Virus record (IMG/VR): IMGVR_UViG_3300042013_000103
Reading direction: 5' to 3' (one strand)
From: a virus
Taxonomy: Duplodnaviria; Caudoviricetes
Length of the DNA: 64,000 nucleotides
A model generated the notes under the pieces. That model saw only the letters and a list, made by a program, of their open reading frames with translations. It made no database searches and was not told the origin of the DNA. The position numbers and the translations under genes were made by a program. Below are positions 7,251-54,366 of this stretch, piece by piece (positions within the stretch are counted from its first letter, which is position 1; each line of letters begins with the position of its first letter).

Positions 7251-7298
7251 AAAAAAATAAGGCATAAAGCCCTCCCCGAAGGGAGAGGCTTTTATGCC
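7251..7298. terminator. intrinsic terminator
   Basis: GGCATAAAGCCCTCCCCGAAGGGAGAGGCTTTTATGCC hairpin with an A-tract. Confidence 0.8.
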
Positions 7299-11053: not shown

Positions 11054-11515
11054 TTAGTGGTCACTACGGGCAGTAATGGCCATGACGATCTTTTCGAAAC
11101 AGTTGTAGAACAGAACTTCTACGTAACCGTTGCACAGTTTCGTTTCCCAGGTGCCCCCGTTGGTCACGTGCGTGAGGATTTGTTCACGTATATAAGTAAG
11201 CTTGTAAACCTCGGGTTTCAACCACAACGGGGCAAACAGTTCCGTCAACCATTCCAGCGAAGGCACCCGTCGCTTGGGGTTGTTGGTGTCATTGGCCATG
11301 AACCGAGAGGTATCCACGATGTTGTTCTCGGCATCAAACAGCACCAGTAGCACACCGGCGTCTTTGGCGTATTTGTTGAGGGTGTAACCCCCTTGGGCGT
11401 CGATGTTATTGGCAATGGCCTGGGTCACCAATGCAGCGGTGTACTCCGAGAGCATCACCCCATGTCGCTTAAAGGTTTGTTGGATGGCTTCCTGGGTAGG
11501 TTTAGCTTGTGGCAT
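11054..11515 (-). CDS. hypothetical protein upstream of phuZ
   Basis: 153-aa ORF with an AGGAG RBS. Confidence 0.7.
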   Translation of the reverse strand: MPQAKPTQEAIQQTFKRHGVMLSEYTAALVTQAIANNIDAQGGYTLNKYAKDAGVLLVLFDAENNIVDTSRFMANDTNNPKRRVPSLEWLTELFAPLWLKPEVYKLTYIREQILTHVTNGGTWETKLCNGYVEVLFYNCFEKIVMAITARSDH

Positions 11516-11560
11516 TCTGACGCTCCTATTTCCTGTACATCATCTACCTCCGCAGTATTG

Positions 11561-11665
11561 TTACACAATGCGGACGATGCTTCCTTTACCGTTCCGGTAG
11601 ATGACCCACTCGATCTTGCGCCCTTGGTCGAGGGCTTGTTGCAGTGCGTTGTTCGTGTTCGGCAT
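11561..11665 (-). CDS. 34-aa micro-protein MPNTNNALQQALDQGRKIEWVIYRNGKGSIVRIV
   Basis: Hand-called; AGGA RBS and phage-like codon use. Confidence 0.5.
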   Translation of the reverse strand: MPNTNNALQQALDQGRKIEWVIYRNGKGSIVRIV

Positions 11666-11913
11666 GCGGTGGTTTTCCTGGTCACTTGAGATGAATCGGC
11701 TTACTAAATAAGGAATAATTACGCGGGTCCTCCCCAGAGGGTCCCCCCCACATAATTATATTCTTTATAGGTAAATCTTTGTTAGAAAACAAAAGCTTTT
11801 AAAAGAAAACAGCTTACTGAATTCCCTGTCGTTCCAAAAGCTTTATAGCGCGATTTTGTTAAAACCGACGAACGGCATACCACCTCCCCAGAGGGAGGCA
11901 GCGGGCTCAGACA

Positions 11914-13239
11914 TTACTCAATGGTTTCGATGATGCCGGTTTCCGTGATCACGTCTTCTTCCTTCTCCCCAAGCAAAAATTGGGTCGAGATCACTTTGAA
12001 GCTGAAGTCCCGTGTGAGCGACTTGTACACCAACCCTTCCCGGTAGCTACCTTTGCGTCCGTTAAAGACCGCAGGGCCCTCAGCGGCGGCCAGGCAGTCC
12101 TTTACCGTAGGAGGCAGCAAAGTGCAAGGGTCAGCCACTGGAATGTACCTCAACCCCAGGACTTCACAGATGGAACGGGCACCGTGAGGCGGTAGTTCCA
12201 TGTTGCCGTTGCTGTAAATCTTGTACACGAAGAACTCGCGGGCTTCCAACCCTTCGAAGTTCGACTGAATGCCCGGACCACAGAGTTCCCCTTGCAGGGT
12301 CAACGCCACCCCCGAGTTCTGCTGGTAACGTTGCAACTTTTCCACCAGGCCATGGGCTTTCACGTAATTGGTGAAGTCGTTGCTATCGTTCTTGCTGACT
12401 TTCCAGGCCGGCCAGATCAAACGGCGACGAGCGATGCACCGGCGGTTGCGACCCAAGAAACTGGCCACCCAGTAACGCAGCTGTTCAAAGCGGGTCCATG
12501 GCACGGGTTCCAGGTCGTACTCAACGTTCCGGGAACACACCCCCGACAACATCATGGCGTCTTGCACCACGTTGTAGACGGTCATCGACGCGCCATTCAG
12601 CTTGATCGACGCTTCGAAAAGCTCATTGTTCTCCACAGCCTTCCGGTACGCCATTGTGAGGTTCTGTACGCGATCCTCAGTCGACTTGGTAAGAAACTTA
12701 GGCCACGGCTTCTCATTCTGCAGATCGCCCATTACACGGGCTACCAGGCGCTCGTACCAATCCGGGGCTTTCAGGGACTCGGCGTTCTTCTTACCGGAGG
12801 ATTCGTACTTCAGAATCCCCAGTTCCAAGGTCACGTTGTCGTCGACCTTCTTGCCGCTGAGTTCTGCGGGGATCGGCACCACCAACCCTTGGGCCAGCTC
12901 CTTGCGGAACTTGGTGGTCTTCAGGCGGTGGTAGTTGGTCCCGTTGACGGTGCGCAGGTCAGAACGACGCGCTTCCAAGAACGAAAACAGCGGGTGTTCA
13001 ACCGGCAACAAACTGTCGATCTCACAGTAGATCGCGCGATCCCCGGCTTTGTATTCGTCGAGTTTGACCACACACTGCCAGCCCCCAACCAACGCCAAGG
13101 ACAACCGATCGGCGTTAGGATGTTTGATCACTTCGTCGATGACGACGATGCGGGCCAGTTTACGTTCGGTTTCCACCACCCCCACGCCAGAACGGATCGG
13201 CGCGAGTTCTTCGGGCAGTACAGTTTCAATTGCAGTCAT
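11914..13239 (-). CDS. ATP-dependent RNA ligase (DRB0094/Rnl2-like)
   Basis: N-terminal IKHPNADRL...GWQCVV...YCEIDS domain; motifs KLNG (I), QGELCGPGIQ (III), FFVY (IIIa), REGLVYK (IV), FKVIS (V). Confidence 0.88.
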   Translation of the reverse strand: MTAIETVLPEELAPIRSGVGVVETERKLARIVVIDEVIKHPNADRLSLALVGGWQCVVKLDEYKAGDRAIYCEIDSLLPVEHPLFSFLEARRSDLRTVNGTNYHRLKTTKFRKELAQGLVVPIPAELSGKKVDDNVTLELGILKYESSGKKNAESLKAPDWYERLVARVMGDLQNEKPWPKFLTKSTEDRVQNLTMAYRKAVENNELFEASIKLNGASMTVYNVVQDAMMLSGVCSRNVEYDLEPVPWTRFEQLRYWVASFLGRNRRCIARRRLIWPAWKVSKNDSNDFTNYVKAHGLVEKLQRYQQNSGVALTLQGELCGPGIQSNFEGLEAREFFVYKIYSNGNMELPPHGARSICEVLGLRYIPVADPCTLLPPTVKDCLAAAEGPAVFNGRKGSYREGLVYKSLTRDFSFKVISTQFLLGEKEEDVITETGIIETIE

Positions 13240-22974: not shown

Positions 22975-23010
22975 GGCATAAAGCCTCCCCCGCAGGGAAG
23001 GCCGTATGGC
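22975..23010. terminator. intrinsic terminator after tail tube gene
   Basis: GGCATAAAGCCTCCCCCGCAGGGAAGGCCGTATGGC hairpin. Confidence 0.65.
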
Positions 23011-31630: not shown

Positions 31631-31660
31631 GCCCCTGCCTTCGGGTAGGGGCTTTATGCC
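31631..31660 (+). terminator. intrinsic terminator
   Basis: GCCCCTGCC-TTCG-GGTAGGGGC-TTTATG. Confidence 0.75.
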
Positions 31661-34442: not shown

Positions 34443-34518
34443 GGTGTTACTCCATTCCCCGTAACAAAGTGTTACAAAAAATAAAGGCATAAAGCCCCAC
34501 CCGAAGGTGAGGCCCTAT

Positions 34519-41423: not shown

Positions 41424-41489
41424 TCGAATCCATTGTACCAAGTTAACCTGATGGACTCGCATGGCGAACAAGAAGTGTTCGAGATGTAA
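41424..41489 (+). pseudogene. stranded duplicate of the nrdB 3' end (SNPLYQVNLMDSHGEQEVFEM*)
   Basis: Aligns ungapped to nrdB SQTAYMVNLMDAAGEQEVFDM* (14/21 identical aa, same stop position); no start codon. Confidence 0.85.
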
Positions 41490-41572
41490 TGCTATGTATT
41501 GCTGTACCCATCCCGTGGCAAAGAACCCTTTACTTTTCTTGGAAGGGTTTTTACTGCGCGGTGGCGTTAACC

Positions 41573-41655: not shown

Positions 41656-43806
41656 ATGAATACTTCCGAACAACAAACACCCACGGATGGCGGGGATCAA
41701 CCACCATTGCACGAAGACAACTCACGTGAAGACCCTGCTAACCGTCCGGAACCCACGGAAGATGAAGGCTCGCGTCAACACCACGTCATTCCGACCGAAC
41801 CCTTGGCGGAACCGGATTACGACCTGTGCCCGGAAGGCAACACCCCTGGGGCCGGCAACATCTACGCCATGGAACGCTTCCTCGACCGTACTCAGTTTAA
41901 AGAACTGGTGGGCACCCCGAGCCTGGAAACGTTCCTGTTCGGTCCCCACGTGACCCCCGCTGAAACAGAAGCCGCCACGTTCACGTTCCAGGAGCACATT
42001 TACCGATCGTCGGACTTGCAGAAGTTGGTGGACTGCATTCCCGTTACGCAGTTCCCTTTGGAGAAGCTTCAGTGGATGGCGGGTTTGCCGTTTGATCAAG
42101 CCCTGGTGGATGCTGCTGACCTCAGCTTGCCGGTGGTCGTGACCGAACACGAGATGGGCAGTTGGACCGCCCCGGATGGGCTGCCGCGTGTTATTAAAGC
42201 CCTGCAGCAGAAAGCCGTCACCCTCCCCGCCAAAGTGGTCCCGCCTGGGTTTGAATTGAGCCTGCATCCAGTCAAGCCAGGCAACGAAGGGGTGTTCGAC
42301 TTCTTTAAGAAACTGTTCCAGCCTTCCCCCAAAGCCCACGACGCCAACGCGGTGAAGGTGCTGGAGAGCCAGTACAAGAACCTGACCTGGCTGAACCAAC
42401 AAAGCTTTGCGGAAGGGGAGATTGACTTGGGCAAAGCGGGCAAAGCACTGGCCATTAAAGGCAAGGTACCCGCGGACATTCAAACCGCCGTGACCTTGGC
42501 GCTGAAAGAGTTCGGGGACGCCAGTCGGGATTTGGTCAAAGCACTCAAGCCGATTTTGGGTGAGGTCGATGAACGGCTGGATGATGTGTACGACAGCAGT
42601 TCGGCTGAGTGGGAAATGGACCAAATAGCGGATCTGGTGGATGAAGCCAACACCCTGATTCGCAATGCCACGGCTGCCTTTACCTTGGGTGACGACAAGG
42701 TCACCTCGACCACCACCAAAGCGCTGGATGCCAAAGGCGTGCAACAGTTGGCGACGGGGTTGCTGAAGTTGATCGCTCTGTACGAGACCACCCGGCAACA
42801 GTTGGGGAACCTCGGCGTGGCGGAAGCCGAATGGCAAATGGCGGACATCCTGACCGAATACCCGGATCAGACGTTGGCGGAAAGTTCCTTTGCAGGCTTT
42901 CGTATCTTGGACGAACTCGAAGAAGTGATTCGGGTGTTGACCATCGCCATTGACAAATCGATCAAGGCCACCGGTGGCACTCCATCCACGGTGTCCAAAG
43001 AAGGCTTTGGGGATTTCATCAAAGGGCTATTCACCAAGAAACCGGTGGAAGTGGATTTCCGTAACCTCACGGAAGTGCGGCGCAAACTGAAAGAAACCCT
43101 GTTGTCGGATAAGTGGTTGGCCCAACAGGGTTTCATCACCGATGACGTGACCTTGGTGGTACCGGCTTTCTTGGTGACCGGCGACTACAGTTCCGTCGTG
43201 CGCATCATGGAGAACAGCGCCAAAGGGGCGATTGCCAAAAACAAGGCCGCCTTGCAGACGTGGTACGCGACGTGGGAACGCATTAACAAATACGCCACCA
43301 GCGGTGATATGAACAGTTGGACCGTTGCCGGCGTCCGCGACATGATCGACAGCGTGGACACCGACGCCGACATTGATTTCGTGGACATGCCGGATCTGAT
43401 GAAAGGTCCCCGTTCGGTGAAACTCCCTGCCCTTAATGCCGCTCAGGTTAAAGCGGTGGCTGAAGTGATCCTGGCGCTGAACGACTCCGACGTGGGGTTT
43501 TTCCGGAAGTCGGTGGAAGGCCAATGGCGCGACGATAACTTCTTGGGCAAAGGGGACATCAGCAAGTGGGATCAAAACAGTGCGTTCAGCAAAGAACGTT
43601 TGGCCACCATCAAAGACCCTGCGGTAAAGGCGGCGGTCGATGAATTGTTTGAAACCTGTGAACATGCGTGCAACAACGTGTTCAAAGGGTTCTTCAACGG
43701 CATGGACGTGTACTGGCACAACCATCATCACACCGCGACGCTGCTGGTGGCGTGGATTGAGAAGTCGCTGGGCAAGACCGTGTCGAAAGAAGTCTACGTG
43801 AAATAA
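41656..43806 (+). CDS. probable virion internal-head protein, protease-processed, with ParB-like N-terminal domain and two repeated domains
   Basis: GNE|GVFDFFKKLF and SKE|GFGDFIKGLF repeats match the S/A/G-x-E head-protease site; DLSLPVVV...DGLPRVIKA...LPAKV is ParB-like. Confidence 0.65.
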   Translation: MNTSEQQTPTDGGDQPPLHEDNSREDPANRPEPTEDEGSRQHHVIPTEPLAEPDYDLCPEGNTPGAGNIYAMERFLDRTQFKELVGTPSLETFLFGPHVTPAETEAATFTFQEHIYRSSDLQKLVDCIPVTQFPLEKLQWMAGLPFDQALVDAADLSLPVVVTEHEMGSWTAPDGLPRVIKALQQKAVTLPAKVVPPGFELSLHPVKPGNEGVFDFFKKLFQPSPKAHDANAVKVLESQYKNLTWLNQQSFAEGEIDLGKAGKALAIKGKVPADIQTAVTLALKEFGDASRDLVKALKPILGEVDERLDDVYDSSSAEWEMDQIADLVDEANTLIRNATAAFTLGDDKVTSTTTKALDAKGVQQLATGLLKLIALYETTRQQLGNLGVAEAEWQMADILTEYPDQTLAESSFAGFRILDELEEVIRVLTIAIDKSIKATGGTPSTVSKEGFGDFIKGLFTKKPVEVDFRNLTEVRRKLKETLLSDKWLAQQGFITDDVTLVVPAFLVTGDYSSVVRIMENSAKGAIAKNKAALQTWYATWERINKYATSGDMNSWTVAGVRDMIDSVDTDADIDFVDMPDLMKGPRSVKLPALNAAQVKAVAEVILALNDSDVGFFRKSVEGQWRDDNFLGKGDISKWDQNSAFSKERLATIKDPAVKAAVDELFETCEHACNNVFKGFFNGMDVYWHNHHHTATLLVAWIEKSLGKTVSKEVYVK

Positions 43807-47277: not shown

Positions 47278-47583
47278 TTATGCCCGGCGGAACCGACGAG
47301 GGGACAGCGGGAGACTGGGTTCTCGTTGCTTGCGTAAACGCTTGGTGGTGTAGTCATGGATCCAACAGGCCAGCACAATGCCCAACGCACTGCCACAGCC
47401 CGCCGAGAGGATGATCCACTTGCCGCCAGCCACCGCAATCTGCGCGGACGCCACTTCCACCCCGCCGATGGCGAAACCAATTACCGCCATGGCCAAGTAG
47501 TAACCGGCGTTAATGTTCTTCTGTTGTAACGACTTGAGGAACACCACACTGAAAGTAATGCAAAAGCTTAACGCGAAGATCAT
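47278..47583 (-). CDS. small multi-pass membrane protein
   Basis: FLKSLQQKNI...GGVEV...GCGSALG; three hydrophobic helices. Confidence 0.7.
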   Translation of the reverse strand: MIFALSFCITFSVVFLKSLQQKNINAGYYLAMAVIGFAIGGVEVASAQIAVAGGKWIILSAGCGSALGIVLACWIHDYTTKRLRKQREPSLPLSPRRFRRA

Positions 47584-47587
47584 TGGT

Positions 47588-47734
47588 TTAACCCCTCCAC
47601 AGGGCGATTAGGAGCTTCGTTGAGGTGACTAGAACGACGATCGCAATAAAGCTCACCATTGACCAGCGTTGTAATTGATCGACCCTACGTGCGCGTGTAC
47701 GGCGTTGCATCCGATCCAGTAAAGGATTGTCCAT
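47588..47734 (-). CDS. 48-aa single-pass membrane protein MDNPLLDRMQRRTRARR...
   Basis: Hand-called; AAGGA RBS; basic N-terminus followed by a TM helix. Confidence 0.55.
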   Translation of the reverse strand: MDNPLLDRMQRRTRARRVDQLQRWSMVSFIAIVVLVTSTKLLIALWRG

Positions 47735-47743
47735 ACGTGTCCC

Positions 47744-48163
47744 TTAGGCTGGTTTCATTTGTATGGCCGAGGCCCCGCGTAACAATTGATAACTTTGGGT
47801 CTTCAATTGCTCCAGTTCGTGGCGTTTCAGGTGTACGTACATCTGCATGATGAGGTGATCCACCAAGGAATAGAAGTTACCCTCGGTCCAACGGCACGCC
47901 CGGTCTAAATCTTCATCAGGTTGGGTAAAGGTTGCCATTGCATCGGTGTGGGCACAGATCACGTGGATCACCACCCCTTTCGTGCCGGTGTACTGAACAC
48001 AACCATCGGTGTTCATCACGCCCGTGGCACTGATCACCAACCGTCCGGAAAAGGGCTTTCGTTCGGAAGGCAGTAACGATTGTTTATGCCGCGACGCTAG
48101 GAACCGAAATGTTGCGGTCCTTTGTGTTGCGGAGAGTTGCGAATTAGCCAAAGACAAGCGCAT
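47744..48163 (-). CDS. hypothetical protein
   Basis: TAATG-coupled ORF. Confidence 0.6.
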   Translation of the reverse strand: MRLSLANSQLSATQRTATFRFLASRHKQSLLPSERKPFSGRLVISATGVMNTDGCVQYTGTKGVVIHVICAHTDAMATFTQPDEDLDRACRWTEGNFYSLVDHLIMQMYVHLKRHELEQLKTQSYQLLRGASAIQMKPA

Positions 48164-48369
48164 TAGAGTTTTCCTATTTCAATACTGAGCAATAAACAGC
48201 CCACCCCCAACACGAACAACGTGAGGGGAATGAACCAAGGATAATGGAACATGAGAGCTGCTCCACACAAGAGTAACAGCACAAAGGCGGCCACTCCTAA
48301 ACAAAACGTTAACAGCGTCCACAGTATCAACACCATAAGACGTTTGAAGTGGAACAACACGCTGGTCAT
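48163..48369 (-). CDS. small membrane protein
   Basis: Two long hydrophobic segments. Confidence 0.7.
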   Translation of the reverse strand: MTSVLFHFKRLMVLILWTLLTFCLGVAAFVLLLLCGAALMFHYPWFIPLTLFVLGVGCLLLSIEIGKL

Positions 48370-48396
48370 GTATAAGTACCTGTAAAGGGAAACGCG

Positions 48397-48433
48397 CCAT
48401 AGCGCCCCTGCCGGAAGTAACGGCAGGGGCTAG
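48397..48433 (-). terminator. intrinsic terminator or attenuator
   Basis: GCCCCTGCCG...CGGCAGGGGC 10-bp stem. Confidence 0.7.
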
Positions 48434-48745
48434 GCACATTGCTGTTAAACACTGGTCAGGCTATTCACTCTAGATTCCAGTGCGCCGAACCGACGTCCCC
48501 GGATTTCGGAGTCGAGGGCTATGACTTCCTTCGGTCCGCGTTTGTCCACGCGCAAGTCAGGCATGAGATTCGGAACAGGGACAACTGCTCCACGGAGGTT
48601 AGCTTCCACTATTAACGGCAACGAATAATCCCGAGTCTTCGCGGTTAACAGTCATTTAGGGGGAGTCAAAAGGGCACCAGCTATCGCCGACGGGTAAGCA
48701 GCTGGGAGATAGTCCCTTTCAACTCCACGATCGTAAAACTCCTAT
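48434..48745 (-). ncRNA. putative ~310-350-nt structured RNA or leader
   Basis: 13-bp GGAGTTGAAAGGG/CCCTTTTGACTCC stem (tandem G-U only on minus strand), 7-bp stem closing a 210-nt multi-hairpin domain; no ORF of 60 aa or more called on this strand. Confidence 0.5.
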
Positions 48746-48756
48746 AGTATTACACT

Positions 48757-49542
48757 CTAGGTATTCTCTTCCCGTAAGCGCATGCCCCCTACGATGGCAG
48801 ACGTCCCCGTGTTGCCTTCGGCCCGGTGGTAAGCGGTTTTGATGAGGTAGTCCAGTTGCTCCAACCGCAGCGTGAGCTGGTCCTGTGGTGACGTGGTCCA
48901 GGAAACATCGGTTGGGATCGCCACACGGAAATTGTCCGCGGTGTACGTGGACACAAAGCGGATGAATTCAATTGGGTGATGTGGGTCAGTTTCCAGTTGC
49001 ATGTGGTAGCGCAGTGCGTCCACCCTGACCGCAAAGGTGGTGTGGTCCTCGGGGTCAAACCAGTTGTTGGGTATGCCTGCCTGGATGAAGGCTTCTTTGG
49101 CCAGTTGATGGACCCCCTTAAACAGAACAAACCCACTTAGGACTAGGCGAGTGTACGGGATGATCACCGGTTTGGCTTTGAGCGGACCATGGTCCAAGGG
49201 GCGCGGGGGCACTGGGCGTTTCAGGGCCAACTTGCGCTGGACGATGTGGTCCAATAAACCTTCCAGAATGACCACGTCAATTGCCCGGTGGATCTTGACC
49301 ATGTCCGGGGCTTCGCCGCGCACGTCCAGGTCTACGGGCAGGGGAATGTACGCGACTACGTTGGTGAGGCTGCACCGCACTTCCACTTGGGGCCACGATT
49401 GCACGGTGTCAATGGACCATGTTCGGACGCCAGAGAACACCCCTTGGCGGTTGTTATTGGTGAGTTCCGCTCGGGCCACCAAACTGAGGAACAGTTCGCG
49501 TTCCTCCACGGACACCCCGAGTTGAGTTGGATCGATGATCAT
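48757..49542 (-). CDS. hypothetical protein (N-terminal domain paralogous to 49539-49970)
   Basis: QLGVSVEERELFLSLVAR. Confidence 0.7.
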   Translation of the reverse strand: MIIDPTQLGVSVEERELFLSLVARAELTNNNRQGVFSGVRTWSIDTVQSWPQVEVRCSLTNVVAYIPLPVDLDVRGEAPDMVKIHRAIDVVILEGLLDHIVQRKLALKRPVPPRPLDHGPLKAKPVIIPYTRLVLSGFVLFKGVHQLAKEAFIQAGIPNNWFDPEDHTTFAVRVDALRYHMQLETDPHHPIEFIRFVSTYTADNFRVAIPTDVSWTTSPQDQLTLRLEQLDYLIKTAYHRAEGNTGTSAIVGGMRLREENT

Positions 49543-49970
49543 TGGGTAATCCCCTTACGCCAGTCTTTGTGGATGGTGCGTTTGTCCAAACGTTCAACGA
49601 TAACCCGGTAATGGTGCAACAACACGCGTTTGATCACCCCTTGGACGTCATCGTACACCAACGCGGCCAGATCCCCTTCGTAACGGTCCAGTGCTTTGAT
49701 GCCCAGGTGCTCGTCCGGTCGGGGCAGGACCTTGATGTTCACATGACGGCCATTGCAATGGATGTTCAACCAACGGTCGTAGCCGTCGATGACGTGCACG
49801 ATACTCAGATCACAGCCGATGGTCGCCTCGTCGCATTCCCGGGGATCGGACCACATGCTGGGTTTCCCTTCAGCACACACCACGTTGGGTTCTGGCATCC
49901 GCTGGGCGAGGTTCAGGAACAACAGCAGTTCGGTTTTGGTGTAATTCAGTTGGGCGGCACGGAGTTCCAT
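49539..49970 (-). CDS. hypothetical protein
   Basis: QLNYTKTELLLFLNLAQR. Confidence 0.7.
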   Translation of the reverse strand: MELRAAQLNYTKTELLLFLNLAQRMPEPNVVCAEGKPSMWSDPRECDEATIGCDLSIVHVIDGYDRWLNIHCNGRHVNIKVLPRPDEHLGIKALDRYEGDLAALVYDDVQGVIKRVLLHHYRVIVERLDKRTIHKDWRKGITQ

Positions 49971-50000
49971 TGTAAGTGTTCCTATTGGTAAAAGACGGTA

Positions 50001-50032
50001 TAAAGCCTATCCTTTTAACGGGATAGGCTTTT
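50001..50032. terminator. intrinsic terminator
   Basis: AAAGCCTATCC...GGATAGGCTTT. Confidence 0.7.
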
Positions 50033-50459
50033 AGACAATGATGGCACGTGGGGCTAACGGCACCCGCATCCAATCCAAGGTCAACGGCACGATGAGGTTA
50101 TCGCTTCGGGACTTGAACTTGCACACGGTGTTGTCGTCGTAGTGGTTGATCTGGTTGCAATAACCCTCCACGGCGTCCTCGTACTGTTTCATCAGCAACG
50201 TGATGGCCTGGTCCCGTTCATGGTACGGCGAGAGCTCGCCTTCCTTTAAGGGGGCCTTGTGGACCTTATCCCACAGGATCACCATCAACAAGTCCGGCCA
50301 GTCCGAGTGTTCCCGGTGGTAGTTGAACTGGTCGATGGCAAACAAGCGGTGGGTTTCCGTCACGTGAGCCATGATCAACTCAGGGGACTCACGGGTTAAG
50401 CCGTAGAACTGCCAACCACCGAGGAACGTCAGGTCAACAACGATCAGTTGAGAAGACAT
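50031..50459 (-). CDS. hypothetical protein (start MSSQLI)
   Basis: ORF track, start adjusted. Confidence 0.65.
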   Translation of the reverse strand: MSSQLIVVDLTFLGGWQFYGLTRESPELIMAHVTETHRLFAIDQFNYHREHSDWPDLLMVILWDKVHKAPLKEGELSPYHERDQAITLLMKQYEDAVEGYCNQINHYDDNTVCKFKSRSDNLIVPLTLDWMRVPLAPRAIIV

Positions 50460-51157
50460 GGTGCGTCGCCGGCGGGCAGGCACTTGTTCACTTCGTCGCT
50501 ACGGTTCTTGTTACGGTTGCGTTCCACCACTTCCAGCACCGACACGTGGATGGTTGCATCGGCTTCGGTTGGGGCCACGTCCGCAAACATTTCCGGGAAC
50601 GCATCCCGCAGTGCTGCTTCGGTGATTTCGATCGCGTCGGCGTCGGAGATGTAGTTGGTCAGGATCACCCCGCGGTGGTACAGGAAACCGAACAGCTCGG
50701 TGTCGCGCACATTGACCTGGACTTTGAAGCCGCCGTAGGTCAGGGTGTTCGGGTTGATCTCGGTGCGGAACACGTCGAACTGGATGTTGTTCGGCAGGTA
50801 CATCTGCATGAACTCGTTCACGCCTCCGCCGAAGATGGTAGGACGCTTACGGCCCACGACGATGTCGCGGATCGAATCCATCAGGCGCGACAGGTCGGTG
50901 GTGAATTCCAGGATGTCGCACATGCGGTGCATGGCTTCGATCAGGCGGTCACGCACCTGTTTGGTTTCATCCGGGGTCCACGGACGGGACTGGAAGGTGA
51001 TCAGGCTCACCCCGAACCAAGCAAAGCCGTTGTTGTGCTGGGCTTTGACGCAGAGGTGCGGCACGTTGTCCCGACCGGCTTGGGTGTTGACGGTGTAGTC
51101 CGTGATTCTTTTGATCACGAAGGAGGCAAAGGGAAATTGTACGATCTGAGTAGACAT
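50444..51157 (-). CDS. hypothetical protein, strongly codon-optimised
   Basis: 237 aa; nearly all C/G third positions. Confidence 0.75.
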   Translation of the reverse strand: MSTQIVQFPFASFVIKRITDYTVNTQAGRDNVPHLCVKAQHNNGFAWFGVSLITFQSRPWTPDETKQVRDRLIEAMHRMCDILEFTTDLSRLMDSIRDIVVGRKRPTIFGGGVNEFMQMYLPNNIQFDVFRTEINPNTLTYGGFKVQVNVRDTELFGFLYHRGVILTNYISDADAIEITEAALRDAFPEMFADVAPTEADATIHVSVLEVVERNRNKNRSDEVNKCLPAGDAPCLLN

Positions 51158-53703: not shown

Positions 53704-54366
53704 TTACCCTGCGCTGGCTTTCGGTTTTGCAGTCAAATCCAACCGACGGTACAGCTTGTCGTGGATCTTGTCGATTTGACGTTGGGTCAAGCAGTTGTTT
53801 TTGTGGATCTTGTGGGTCACCGAGTCGTAGTAATCGAAATTGATCGAGCTGCTTTTGTCCCGGCTGGCGGCAAACACAAAGGCTTCCAAGGCGTTCCCGA
53901 AGATCCCGGGGTGCAGTGACTGCAACTGCCGGGCATAAAAGTCCCCTGAGCCGTCGACGTAAACAAAACGTTCATCCGTCGGGGTGTAGACTGCGAACGT
54001 TTGTTTCGTGTCGTCGTTGATCCAGAAGGGTTCGTTGGGACCCATAAAACCGATGATGCCCAATGAACCCATGTTGTGTTGCAGTACGTTCACCGCGGCG
54101 GCCCACGTGACGAAGTGCAACGCTTTGGCACAAGCTTTGAACTTTTCAATGCTGTCCAGGTTTCCACAGAATGCGGCTGCCATCACCGGACTCTTGGAAT
54201 CTAAGGTCCATTTCTCTTCGGGCGCTGGAATCACGAGTTTGGTCGCTGCCCCACTTCGGTGTATGCGGTCGCGGACCGCGTCCGGGTCGTCGAGGGTGCA
54301 GCTGAGGTCATGGTTCACTAACCGATCCGCCACCATGAACCGTTTGTCAAGTACGATTGTGGTCAT
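53704..54366 (-). CDS. Ntn-hydrolase/proteasome-beta (HslV-like) family protein
   Basis: Starts M-T-T-I-V, AD, K, AFCG, GSG..A, A.EA...A...D..S pattern. Confidence 0.6.
   Translation of the reverse strand: MTTIVLDKRFMVADRLVNHDLSCTLDDPDAVRDRIHRSGAATKLVIPAPEEKWTLDSKSPVMAAAFCGNLDSIEKFKACAKALHFVTWAAAVNVLQHNMGSLGIIGFMGPNEPFWINDDTKQTFAVYTPTDERFVYVDGSGDFYARQLQSLHPGIFGNALEAFVFAASRDKSSSINFDYYDSVTHKIHKNNCLTQRQIDKIHDKLYRRLDLTAKPKASAG

Follow-up and report, generated by a model that had tools for sequence, protein, structure and literature searches.

A covarying 5′ hairpin and the gene for a probable structured RNA of about 345 nt in an uncultured phiKZ-like jumbo phage

Jumbo phages of the nucleus-forming type serve as models in phage cell biology and are considered for therapeutic use, and their RNA biology is almost unexplored. 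In phage lambda, the short promoter-proximal '6S' transcript from pR′ ends at the terminator tR′ before the lysis and late genes, and the nut and put antitermination RNAs are structured and lie just after a promoter. GOLLD (RF01998) and ROOL (RF03087) are large structured phage RNAs whose function is not known. The closest described counterpart of the locus studied here is a transcription unit of phiKZ, TU198, which spans 120 nt (263172–263292), contains no gene, has a longest read to 264292 (PHIKZ289) and is listed as an ncRNA candidate, "5'UTR-derived, PHIKZ289, 120 nt" (bioRxiv 10.1101/2023.10.13.562163). Short RNAs from premature termination, together with read-through forms, make up a class in phiKZ with 17 candidates (PMC10914365). 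Putzeys et al. gives TU198 as a transcript only, without structure, conservation or function, and we found no description of the conservation, structure or long forms of this RNA in the accessible literature. The phiKZ member is thus already known as an anonymous transcript candidate only, and the window, by which we mean the whole 64-kb stretch of DNA analysed, contributes a divergent member, whose extension is of another type or no longer recognisable and whose terminator tail is degenerate.

The locus in the window shares with TU198 a homologous hairpin (53.5 bits in phiKZ and 64.2 bits in the window) with the loops AUCUCC, CCCGUC and GGUGCC and a CCUA tail, as well as a promoter upstream, a standard terminator downstream and homologues of PHIKZ287/287.1 upstream. 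TU198 is a short form, however, in which the hairpin is followed directly by the terminator, whereas the window has about 220 extra nucleotides, an eroded U-tract and other downstream genes; the predicted RNA of about 345 nt also lies above the <250 nt size filter of PMC10914365. In layout the RNA would resemble lambda 6S and nut/put, being a structured RNA after a promoter with a terminator before lysis or late genes, but there is no similarity in sequence or structure, and the polymerase here is the phage's own non-canonical enzyme. Compared with GOLLD and ROOL, the RNA has no Rfam match and is smaller, and its only well-supported structure is a hairpin of 77 nt.

The window has 54% G+C and densely packed genes, and this DNA stretch was present in two rhizosphere metagenomes only; no RNA run was listed as containing it. 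As its PHIKZ287-family protein of 237 aa shares 48–49% identity with counterparts in 65 Pseudomonas jumbo phages of the phiKZ-like, PA1C-like and Psa21-like kinds, and as the sequence carrying the upstream 261-aa gene is 308,580 bp long, the window is, judged by its sequence, part of an uncultured phiKZ-like (nucleus-forming type) jumbo phage of about 308 kb. The interval at issue is a gap of 387 nt on the minus strand (48370–48756) that has no plausible gene; the original prediction had placed it correctly and had called it one of the largest gaps, and it ranks second in the window after one of 398 nt at 11516–11913. The features in and around the gap are as follows.

53704–54366, minus strand: only PHIKZ289-like match in the window (tblastn, 54 residues aligned, E 8e-6), located upstream of the gene homologous to PHIKZ287
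50444–51157: PHIKZ287 homologue, 237 aa, phrog_15052
48757–49542, minus strand: upstream gene, a 261-aa orphan, with its stop codon 11–14 nt before the predicted RNA start
48740–48766, minus strand: promoter-like element AATACC-N8-TAATACTATAGG, at a site conserved in relatives
48652–48728, minus strand: conserved 5′ hairpin motif, 77 nt (covariance model R1, 64.2 bits, E 1.3e-12)
48726–48714 / 48674–48662, minus strand: P1 stem, 13 bp
48713–48706, minus strand: 5′ internal loop ACUAUCUC, which contains AUCUCC
48705–48700 / 48682–48677, minus strand: P2a stem, from the minimum free energy (MFE) fold
48694–48689, minus strand: CCCGUC, within the P2b and apical loop region
48678–48673, minus strand: GGUGCC, on the 3′ strand
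48660–48654, minus strand: tail CCUAAAU, after P1
48431–48651, minus strand: lineage-specific 3′ extension, about 221 nt, between hairpin and terminator
48390–48430, minus strand: terminator hairpin (stem 48430–48421 / 48413–48404, loop 48420–48414) with degenerate tail GCUAUGGCGCG
48163–48369, minus strand: first downstream gene, a very hydrophobic membrane protein of 68 aa (ORF list; called as a gene on Logan contigs)
47744–48163, minus strand: downstream ORF, 139 aa (ORF list)
47588–47734, minus strand: 48-aa PHIKZ290.1-like small membrane protein (likeness by eye)
47278–47583, minus strand: holin-like membrane protein, 101 aa (phrog_7045 'holin', E 1.9e-11), last gene of the unit behind the RNA

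Related loci were gathered from Logan, JGI, IMG/VR and GenBank via the PHIKZ287-like neighbour. Two Logan contigs, L003 and L004, were 100% identical to the window and so carry no comparative information. Using nhmmer, the 5′ hairpin of the window matched an intergenic region of one related locus, L005 (E 1.6e-4), and from L005 many others were reached; a blastn search of phage genomes with the region found nothing, and exact DNA patterns searched in IMG/VR returned only chance matches or loci already known. A covariance model built from 11 sequences (R1) found exactly one hairpin per locus in 24 related loci including the window, with E values from 1.8e-17 to 0.81; the members include phiKZ, U5, PA7-like, PhiPA3, HPP-Temi, PA1C, phiLBG22, Psa21, Viktualia and 201phi2-1. 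Each whole genome searched (phiKZ, PA1C, PhiPA3, Psa21, 201phi2-1 and Viktualia among them) had one significant copy, and the 64 kb of the window held one R1 match. A further model, R2, gave no match in EL, OBP, Lu11, SPN3US and Ea35-70, which does not by itself prove absence. No known RNA family accounted for the locus: Rfam 15 had no match at E ≤ 10 in 48100–49000 and none at gathering score anywhere in the window, the elements of five relatives had no Rfam match at E ≤ 5, and ARAGORN reported no tRNA or tmRNA. The signatures of tmRNA and RNase P are missing, as had been predicted, and the likeness to these RNAs is one of size only; a group I intron and an RsmY/Z-like GGA sponge were rejected on the same grounds.

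When each of the 23 distinct relatives was folded alone, a common architecture was recovered. A P1 stem of 12–13 bp leads to an asymmetric internal loop (7–8 nt on the 5′ side, AACAUCUC, and 2 nt, UG, on the 3′ side), followed by P2a of 5–8 bp, a 3-nt bulge, P2b of 3–5 bp and a loop of 7–8 nt with CCCGUC; the letters AUCUCC, CCCGUC, GGUGCC and the tail N-CCU-A are invariant. In the model alignment 89.9% of the cells assigned to pairs were paired, against 69.2% in column shuffles and 41–49% in slid controls, and cells changed on both sides numbered 87 against 25.5 in shuffles. Changes on both sides occurred in 16 of the 19 pairs, and P2a takes at least 10 different sequences, every one of them complementary. 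The hairpin therefore covaries, and the window copy is a member of the family: its P1 closes the asymmetric AUCUCC loop, P2a and P2b follow, and the CCCGUC loop, GGUGCC and the N-CCU-A tail are all present. Two helices that had been proposed from the window alone, the 13-bp stem at 48726–48714 / 48674–48662 and the inner CCAGCT/AGCTGG helix, are both found in the MFE fold and are kept by compensatory changes in the 23 relatives.

The hairpin is better kept than the proteins encoded around it, for several of which no homologue could be detected, and between phages with proteins only about 40% identical its loops do not vary. The invariant unpaired nucleotides most likely form the site at which a conserved partner, protein or RNA, docks. 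The P1 stem, at 12–13 bp, is as long as a minihelix of tRNA acceptor and T-arm and is always followed by N-CCU-A (48654–48662 in the window), which recalls a tRNA 3′ end; as part of the bolder and improbable proposal given below, stem and tail might mimic such a minihelix, or an anti-Shine-Dalgarno sequence. Pairing of the AUCUCC loop with the terminator or with a ribosome-binding site, as in an anti-terminator or anti-Shine-Dalgarno device, was considered and rejected, because the match is a trivial one of C-rich with G-rich sequence and does not covary.

These data leave the strand unfixed. It had been argued that tandem G-U pairs assign the structure to the minus strand, and this holds in the window, where 4 of 24 pairs are G-U; family-wide, however, G-U pairs are rare and, by the folding energies of the two strands, the antisense folds equally well. 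This symmetry, together with the presence of a single copy per genome, would also suit an element acting as DNA or single-stranded DNA, for instance an origin of replication or a signal for packaging. We consider that very improbable, given that phiKZ makes a discrete RNA of 120 nt exactly here, that conservation of the promoter and of the terminator is confined to the sense strand and that the loops are conserved asymmetrically. It is the promoter, the terminator and the phiKZ transcript that fix the sense strand.

Upstream of the hairpin, all close relatives carry AATACyy-N-TAATAsyATAT(G/A). The phiKZ promoter P130, with its transcription start site (TSS) at 263172, was classed as "middle" (Putzeys et al. 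supplement, bioRxiv 10.1101/2023.10.13.562163, published as PMC10914365), and phiKZ late promoters have TATG with the G at +1 (PMC4666361). P130 is the sequence homologous to the window promoter, and its TSS falls just after the TATG; by this correspondence, transcription in the window would start at about 48740–48743. The terminator T119 was placed at 263292 (Putzeys et al. supplement, bioRxiv 10.1101/2023.10.13.562163). The phiKZ homologue of the hairpin, found by R1 with 53.5 bits at 263187–263262 between PHIKZ288 and PHIKZ289, lies inside TU198, so that the sense strand, start, stop and read-through are experimentally set for a short-form homologue. As TU197 shows the PHIKZ288 mRNA ending at the same T119, the hairpin belongs in phiKZ to a 3′ UTR as well. 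A consensus scan for sigma-70 promoters and canonical terminators returned nothing at the element, as is expected for a phage with its own polymerases. Elsewhere in the window, the promoter-like motif TGTAATACTATA upstream of the RNA has a single close match, TGTAATGCTATG at 41485–41496 (plus strand), which is intergenic and points at a gene starting at 41656.

All relatives have a G+C-rich hairpin and GCUUUAUGCCG behind the RNA, either directly or after an extension, and at the position of the window terminator, which corresponds to that of T119 in phiKZ, they have a stem followed by GGCTTTATGCC. The 10-bp terminator of the original prediction exists as a hairpin at this standard site, but only GCUAUGG is left of its U-tract, and it goes uncalled in the scan for consensus terminators. 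By alignment the RNA would end at about 48390–48400, which gives a predicted length of about 345 nt. As most of the U-tract has been lost, termination in the window may be weak, and the element may there be mostly a long 5′ leader. The window contains 15 copies of the sequence GGCTTTATGCC where 5.2 would be expected, a good number of them between genes (for example 7261–7271, minus; 7288–7298, plus; 22975–22985, minus; 31650–31660, plus; 34486–34496, minus; 49997–50007, minus), and it looks like a family-wide terminator signature of these phages. In a wastewater library, guessed to be of RNA, there were two small variant contigs, 48191–48399 and 49483–49600, neither of which covers the RNA; the former, of 210 nt, covers the 68-aa gene and ends 5 nt past the terminator stem, and being single and of low depth it gives no evidence of a transcript end.

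Members of the family differ in what stands between hairpin and terminator. In the short forms (phiKZ, L005, L029, the Psa21 group and L041) the terminator comes right after the hairpin, and L005, the nearest relative of the window, is among them. The long forms (the window, L008, PA1C/HPP-Temi/phiLBG22, PhiPA3, L043, L044, Viktualia and 201phi2-1) carry an extension of 238–265 nt at this same junction. In the window about 221 nt separate hairpin and terminator, at a position that corresponds to the extensions of 255–265 nt in L008, PA1C/HPP-Temi, PhiPA3, 201phi2-1 and Viktualia. The long forms of PhiPA3, PA1C/PS119XW/HPP-Temi, 201phi2-1 and Viktualia, which are unannotated or lie under doubtful small CDS, share with the window the 5′ hairpin, the terminator, the insertion point and a similar total length (334–378 nt). 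The extensions of the PA1C/PhiPA3 and 201phi2-1 groups are homologous and make up a single domain (nhmmer E about 1e-4), with the core motifs CUUUCGG...CCGAAGC, GAAGUUA and GCUGGCCAGC; a helix CUUUCGG/CCGAAGC surrounds hairpins, and then come a covarying hairpin and GAAGUUA. This domain covaries, with changes on both sides in 17 of 38 predicted pairs, and its members score 102–117 bits with a covariance model of it (R3).

The extension of the window does not match this conserved core: with filters off, its best R3 score was 0.8 bits (E 1.4), and nhmmer profiles likewise found no homology to the other long forms. The extension of L008 was borderline (5.4 bits, E 0.075). Window and L008 have patchy collinear similarity (global z = 1.9) and three shared collinear hairpins, of which CGCGU-GGACAA-ACGCG in the window and CCCGU-AGGCAA-ACGGG in L008 differ by one compensatory change; they also share ATGC(C/A)TGA, GAAGUC, a hairpin CUCCG/CGGGG versus CCAC/GUGG, and GCGCACUG...CAGUG. 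The window extension would then be either a very diverged version of the PhiPA3/201phi2-1-type domain or a second type.

Folding energies must be read with the hairpin in mind. The whole interval folds better than shuffles (z = −2.6), because of the 5′ hairpin (z = −1.9) and the terminator. The original prediction had leaned mainly on the many stems of a second domain, and of these CGCGT/ACGCG, CTCCG/CGGGG and CACTGG/CCAGTG do appear in the MFE fold; the domain itself, however, folds no better than dinucleotide shuffles (z = −0.01), so that as the main argument for an RNA the stems carry no more weight than chance. The helix proposed to close this domain, CTGTTAA/TTAACAG, is absent from both MFE folds, and two other partners compete for it. 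The GUUAA/UUAAC segments at 48651–48644, 48623–48610 and 48450–48438 pair in mutually exclusive ways, as a long-range closure, a local 8-bp hairpin or a third pairing, none of which is backed by any relative.

It may accordingly be asked whether only the 5′ hairpin and the terminator are functional, the 221 nt between them being a decayed or inserted spacer with no structure or function of its own. The folding energy of this stretch, equal to that of shuffles, would fit, as would the lack of nhmmer or covariance-model homology to the covarying PhiPA3/201phi2-1 extension, the low global similarity to L008 and the absence of any extension from short forms, even from L005. Yet six lineages have an extension of similar length (238–265 nt) at the same site, the extension covaries in the PhiPA3/PA1C and 201phi2-1 groups, and the hairpins shared with L008 include one with a compensatory change. 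We regard a mere spacer as a serious possibility that falls somewhat short of an even chance, and any role given below to the 3′ extension is proposed with this in mind.

The gap contains no conserved ORF. A reading frame at 48445–48621 (minus) is open for 58 codons from a TTG start or 39 codons from an ATG start, and a small protein encoded there had been named as a weak alternative. Neither start is preceded by a Shine-Dalgarno sequence, the 58-aa product has no homologue among 5.8 billion proteins, and gene callers left the gap empty on the Logan contigs, so this ORF was rejected. The long forms contain unrelated ORFs at shifting positions and frames, relatives that are 90% identical differ in frame and stop, and a 2-nt gap in the alignment of window and L008 puts their shared nucleotides in different frames. 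With frames not kept among relatives, we give a protein of 39–58 codons hardly any credence.

Small 'hypothetical protein' CDS have been deposited over long-form RNAs, in Viktualia (CDS0139 and CDS0140; L080 1183–1633) and in HPP-Temi (CDS0042 and CDS0041; L001 8481–8698), and these annotations are probably false. The PA1C and 201phi2-1 annotations leave gaps of 430 and 450 nt at the site of the RNA, the one in 201phi2-1 being 287026–287476.

The surroundings of the RNA are only partly constant. Its locus is syntenic, lying downstream of PHIKZ287/287.1 homologues in the window and in phiKZ alike, and in the window the intervening 261-aa protein had no homologue except itself by tblastn, in IMG/VR and in the 5.8-billion-protein search. 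The gene behind the RNA is PHIKZ289-like in phiKZ, PA1C and PhiPA3, a membrane protein of about 80 aa followed by a PHIKZ289-like gene in the Psa21 group, the phrog_7045 holin-like gene in L029, a PHIKZ290.1-like microprotein in L005 and L008, gp425 in 201phi2-1 and, in the window, the 68-aa membrane protein, which had no family match. This variation indicates that the RNA is not tied to one gene, and argues against a dedicated cis-regulator of a single gene. The PHIKZ289 homologue is found upstream in the window and likewise in L008 (4329–4982); from its position, it has changed place in the window lineage while the RNA stayed put. The 48-aa ORF of the window (N-terminal MDNPLLDRM...) resembles by eye the small genes directly behind the RNA in L005 and L008, and PHIKZ290.1 finds the L008 gene by tblastn; the ORF of the window was not matched in that way. 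In L029 the homologue of the 101-aa holin-like gene stands directly behind the RNA, a hint that the RNA may be connected with lysis genes.

The explanation that we consider likely is that the interval encodes a structured RNA of about 345 nt, an enlarged and divergent member of an RNA family that phiKZ-like Pseudomonas jumbo phages carry in single copy, and that this RNA doubles as the leader of an operon. The phage's own RNA polymerase would start at the conserved promoter about 15 nt upstream of the 77-nt hairpin, pass through the extension of about 220 nt and mostly stop at the standard phage terminator. A fraction would read through into the genes for small membrane proteins (68 aa, 139 aa, 48 aa PHIKZ290.1-like and 101 aa holin-like), and the locus would thus yield both a discrete ncRNA and the 5′ leader of the downstream operon. 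It had been proposed at the outset that the interval was either a large ncRNA or an attenuating leader for small membrane genes, and both halves fit, given a covarying hairpin throughout the family and a phiKZ homologue that is a 120-nt transcript with read-through.

One may postulate instead a stand-alone ncRNA that acts purely in trans, as a protein sponge, a component of a ribonucleoprotein or a base-pairing RNA, with its position before membrane genes incidental and the read-through devoid of regulatory meaning. The better conservation of the hairpin relative to neighbouring proteins, the varied gene downstream (PHIKZ289-like, small membrane proteins, holin-like or gp425), the move of the PHIKZ289 homologue past an RNA that stayed, the single copy per genome and loops that are invariant where proteins are about 40% identical are what such an RNA would lead one to expect. 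Against it, reads from the same start in phiKZ run into PHIKZ289, and a ribosome-binding site and start codon follow within 20–60 nt behind every member; we rate a purely trans-acting RNA as rather unlikely and prefer the double role of ncRNA and operon leader. A bolder proposal, which we hold to be improbable, is that the hairpin forms the active part of an RNA which works in trans and is needed by all nucleus-forming phages of the phiKZ/PhiPA3/201phi2-1 type, whose stem, tail and loops would dock a conserved host or phage factor and whose 3′ extensions would be lineage-specific functional modules. Were this true, the RNA gene would be modular, with 3′ extensions that can be exchanged and belong to two or more unrelated types.

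The locus shows that one of the 17 anonymous ncRNA candidates of phiKZ is an RNA with deep conservation, covariation, invariant loops and a single copy per genome. In several genera it is better kept than the genes next to it, and it comes in a short and a long form, with what appear to be at least two unrelated extensions. The RNA offers a concrete target for genetics or antisense knock-down in phiKZ, PhiPA3 or 201phi2-1 and is a candidate for a new Rfam family, and the mis-annotated small CDS that lie over it are flagged here in several deposited genomes.

The largest gap in the window without an ORF of at least 100 aa, the 398 nt at 11516–11913, lies between minus-strand genes at 11054–11515 and 11914–13239. 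It had no Rfam match at gathering score, and it could hold another RNA gene.
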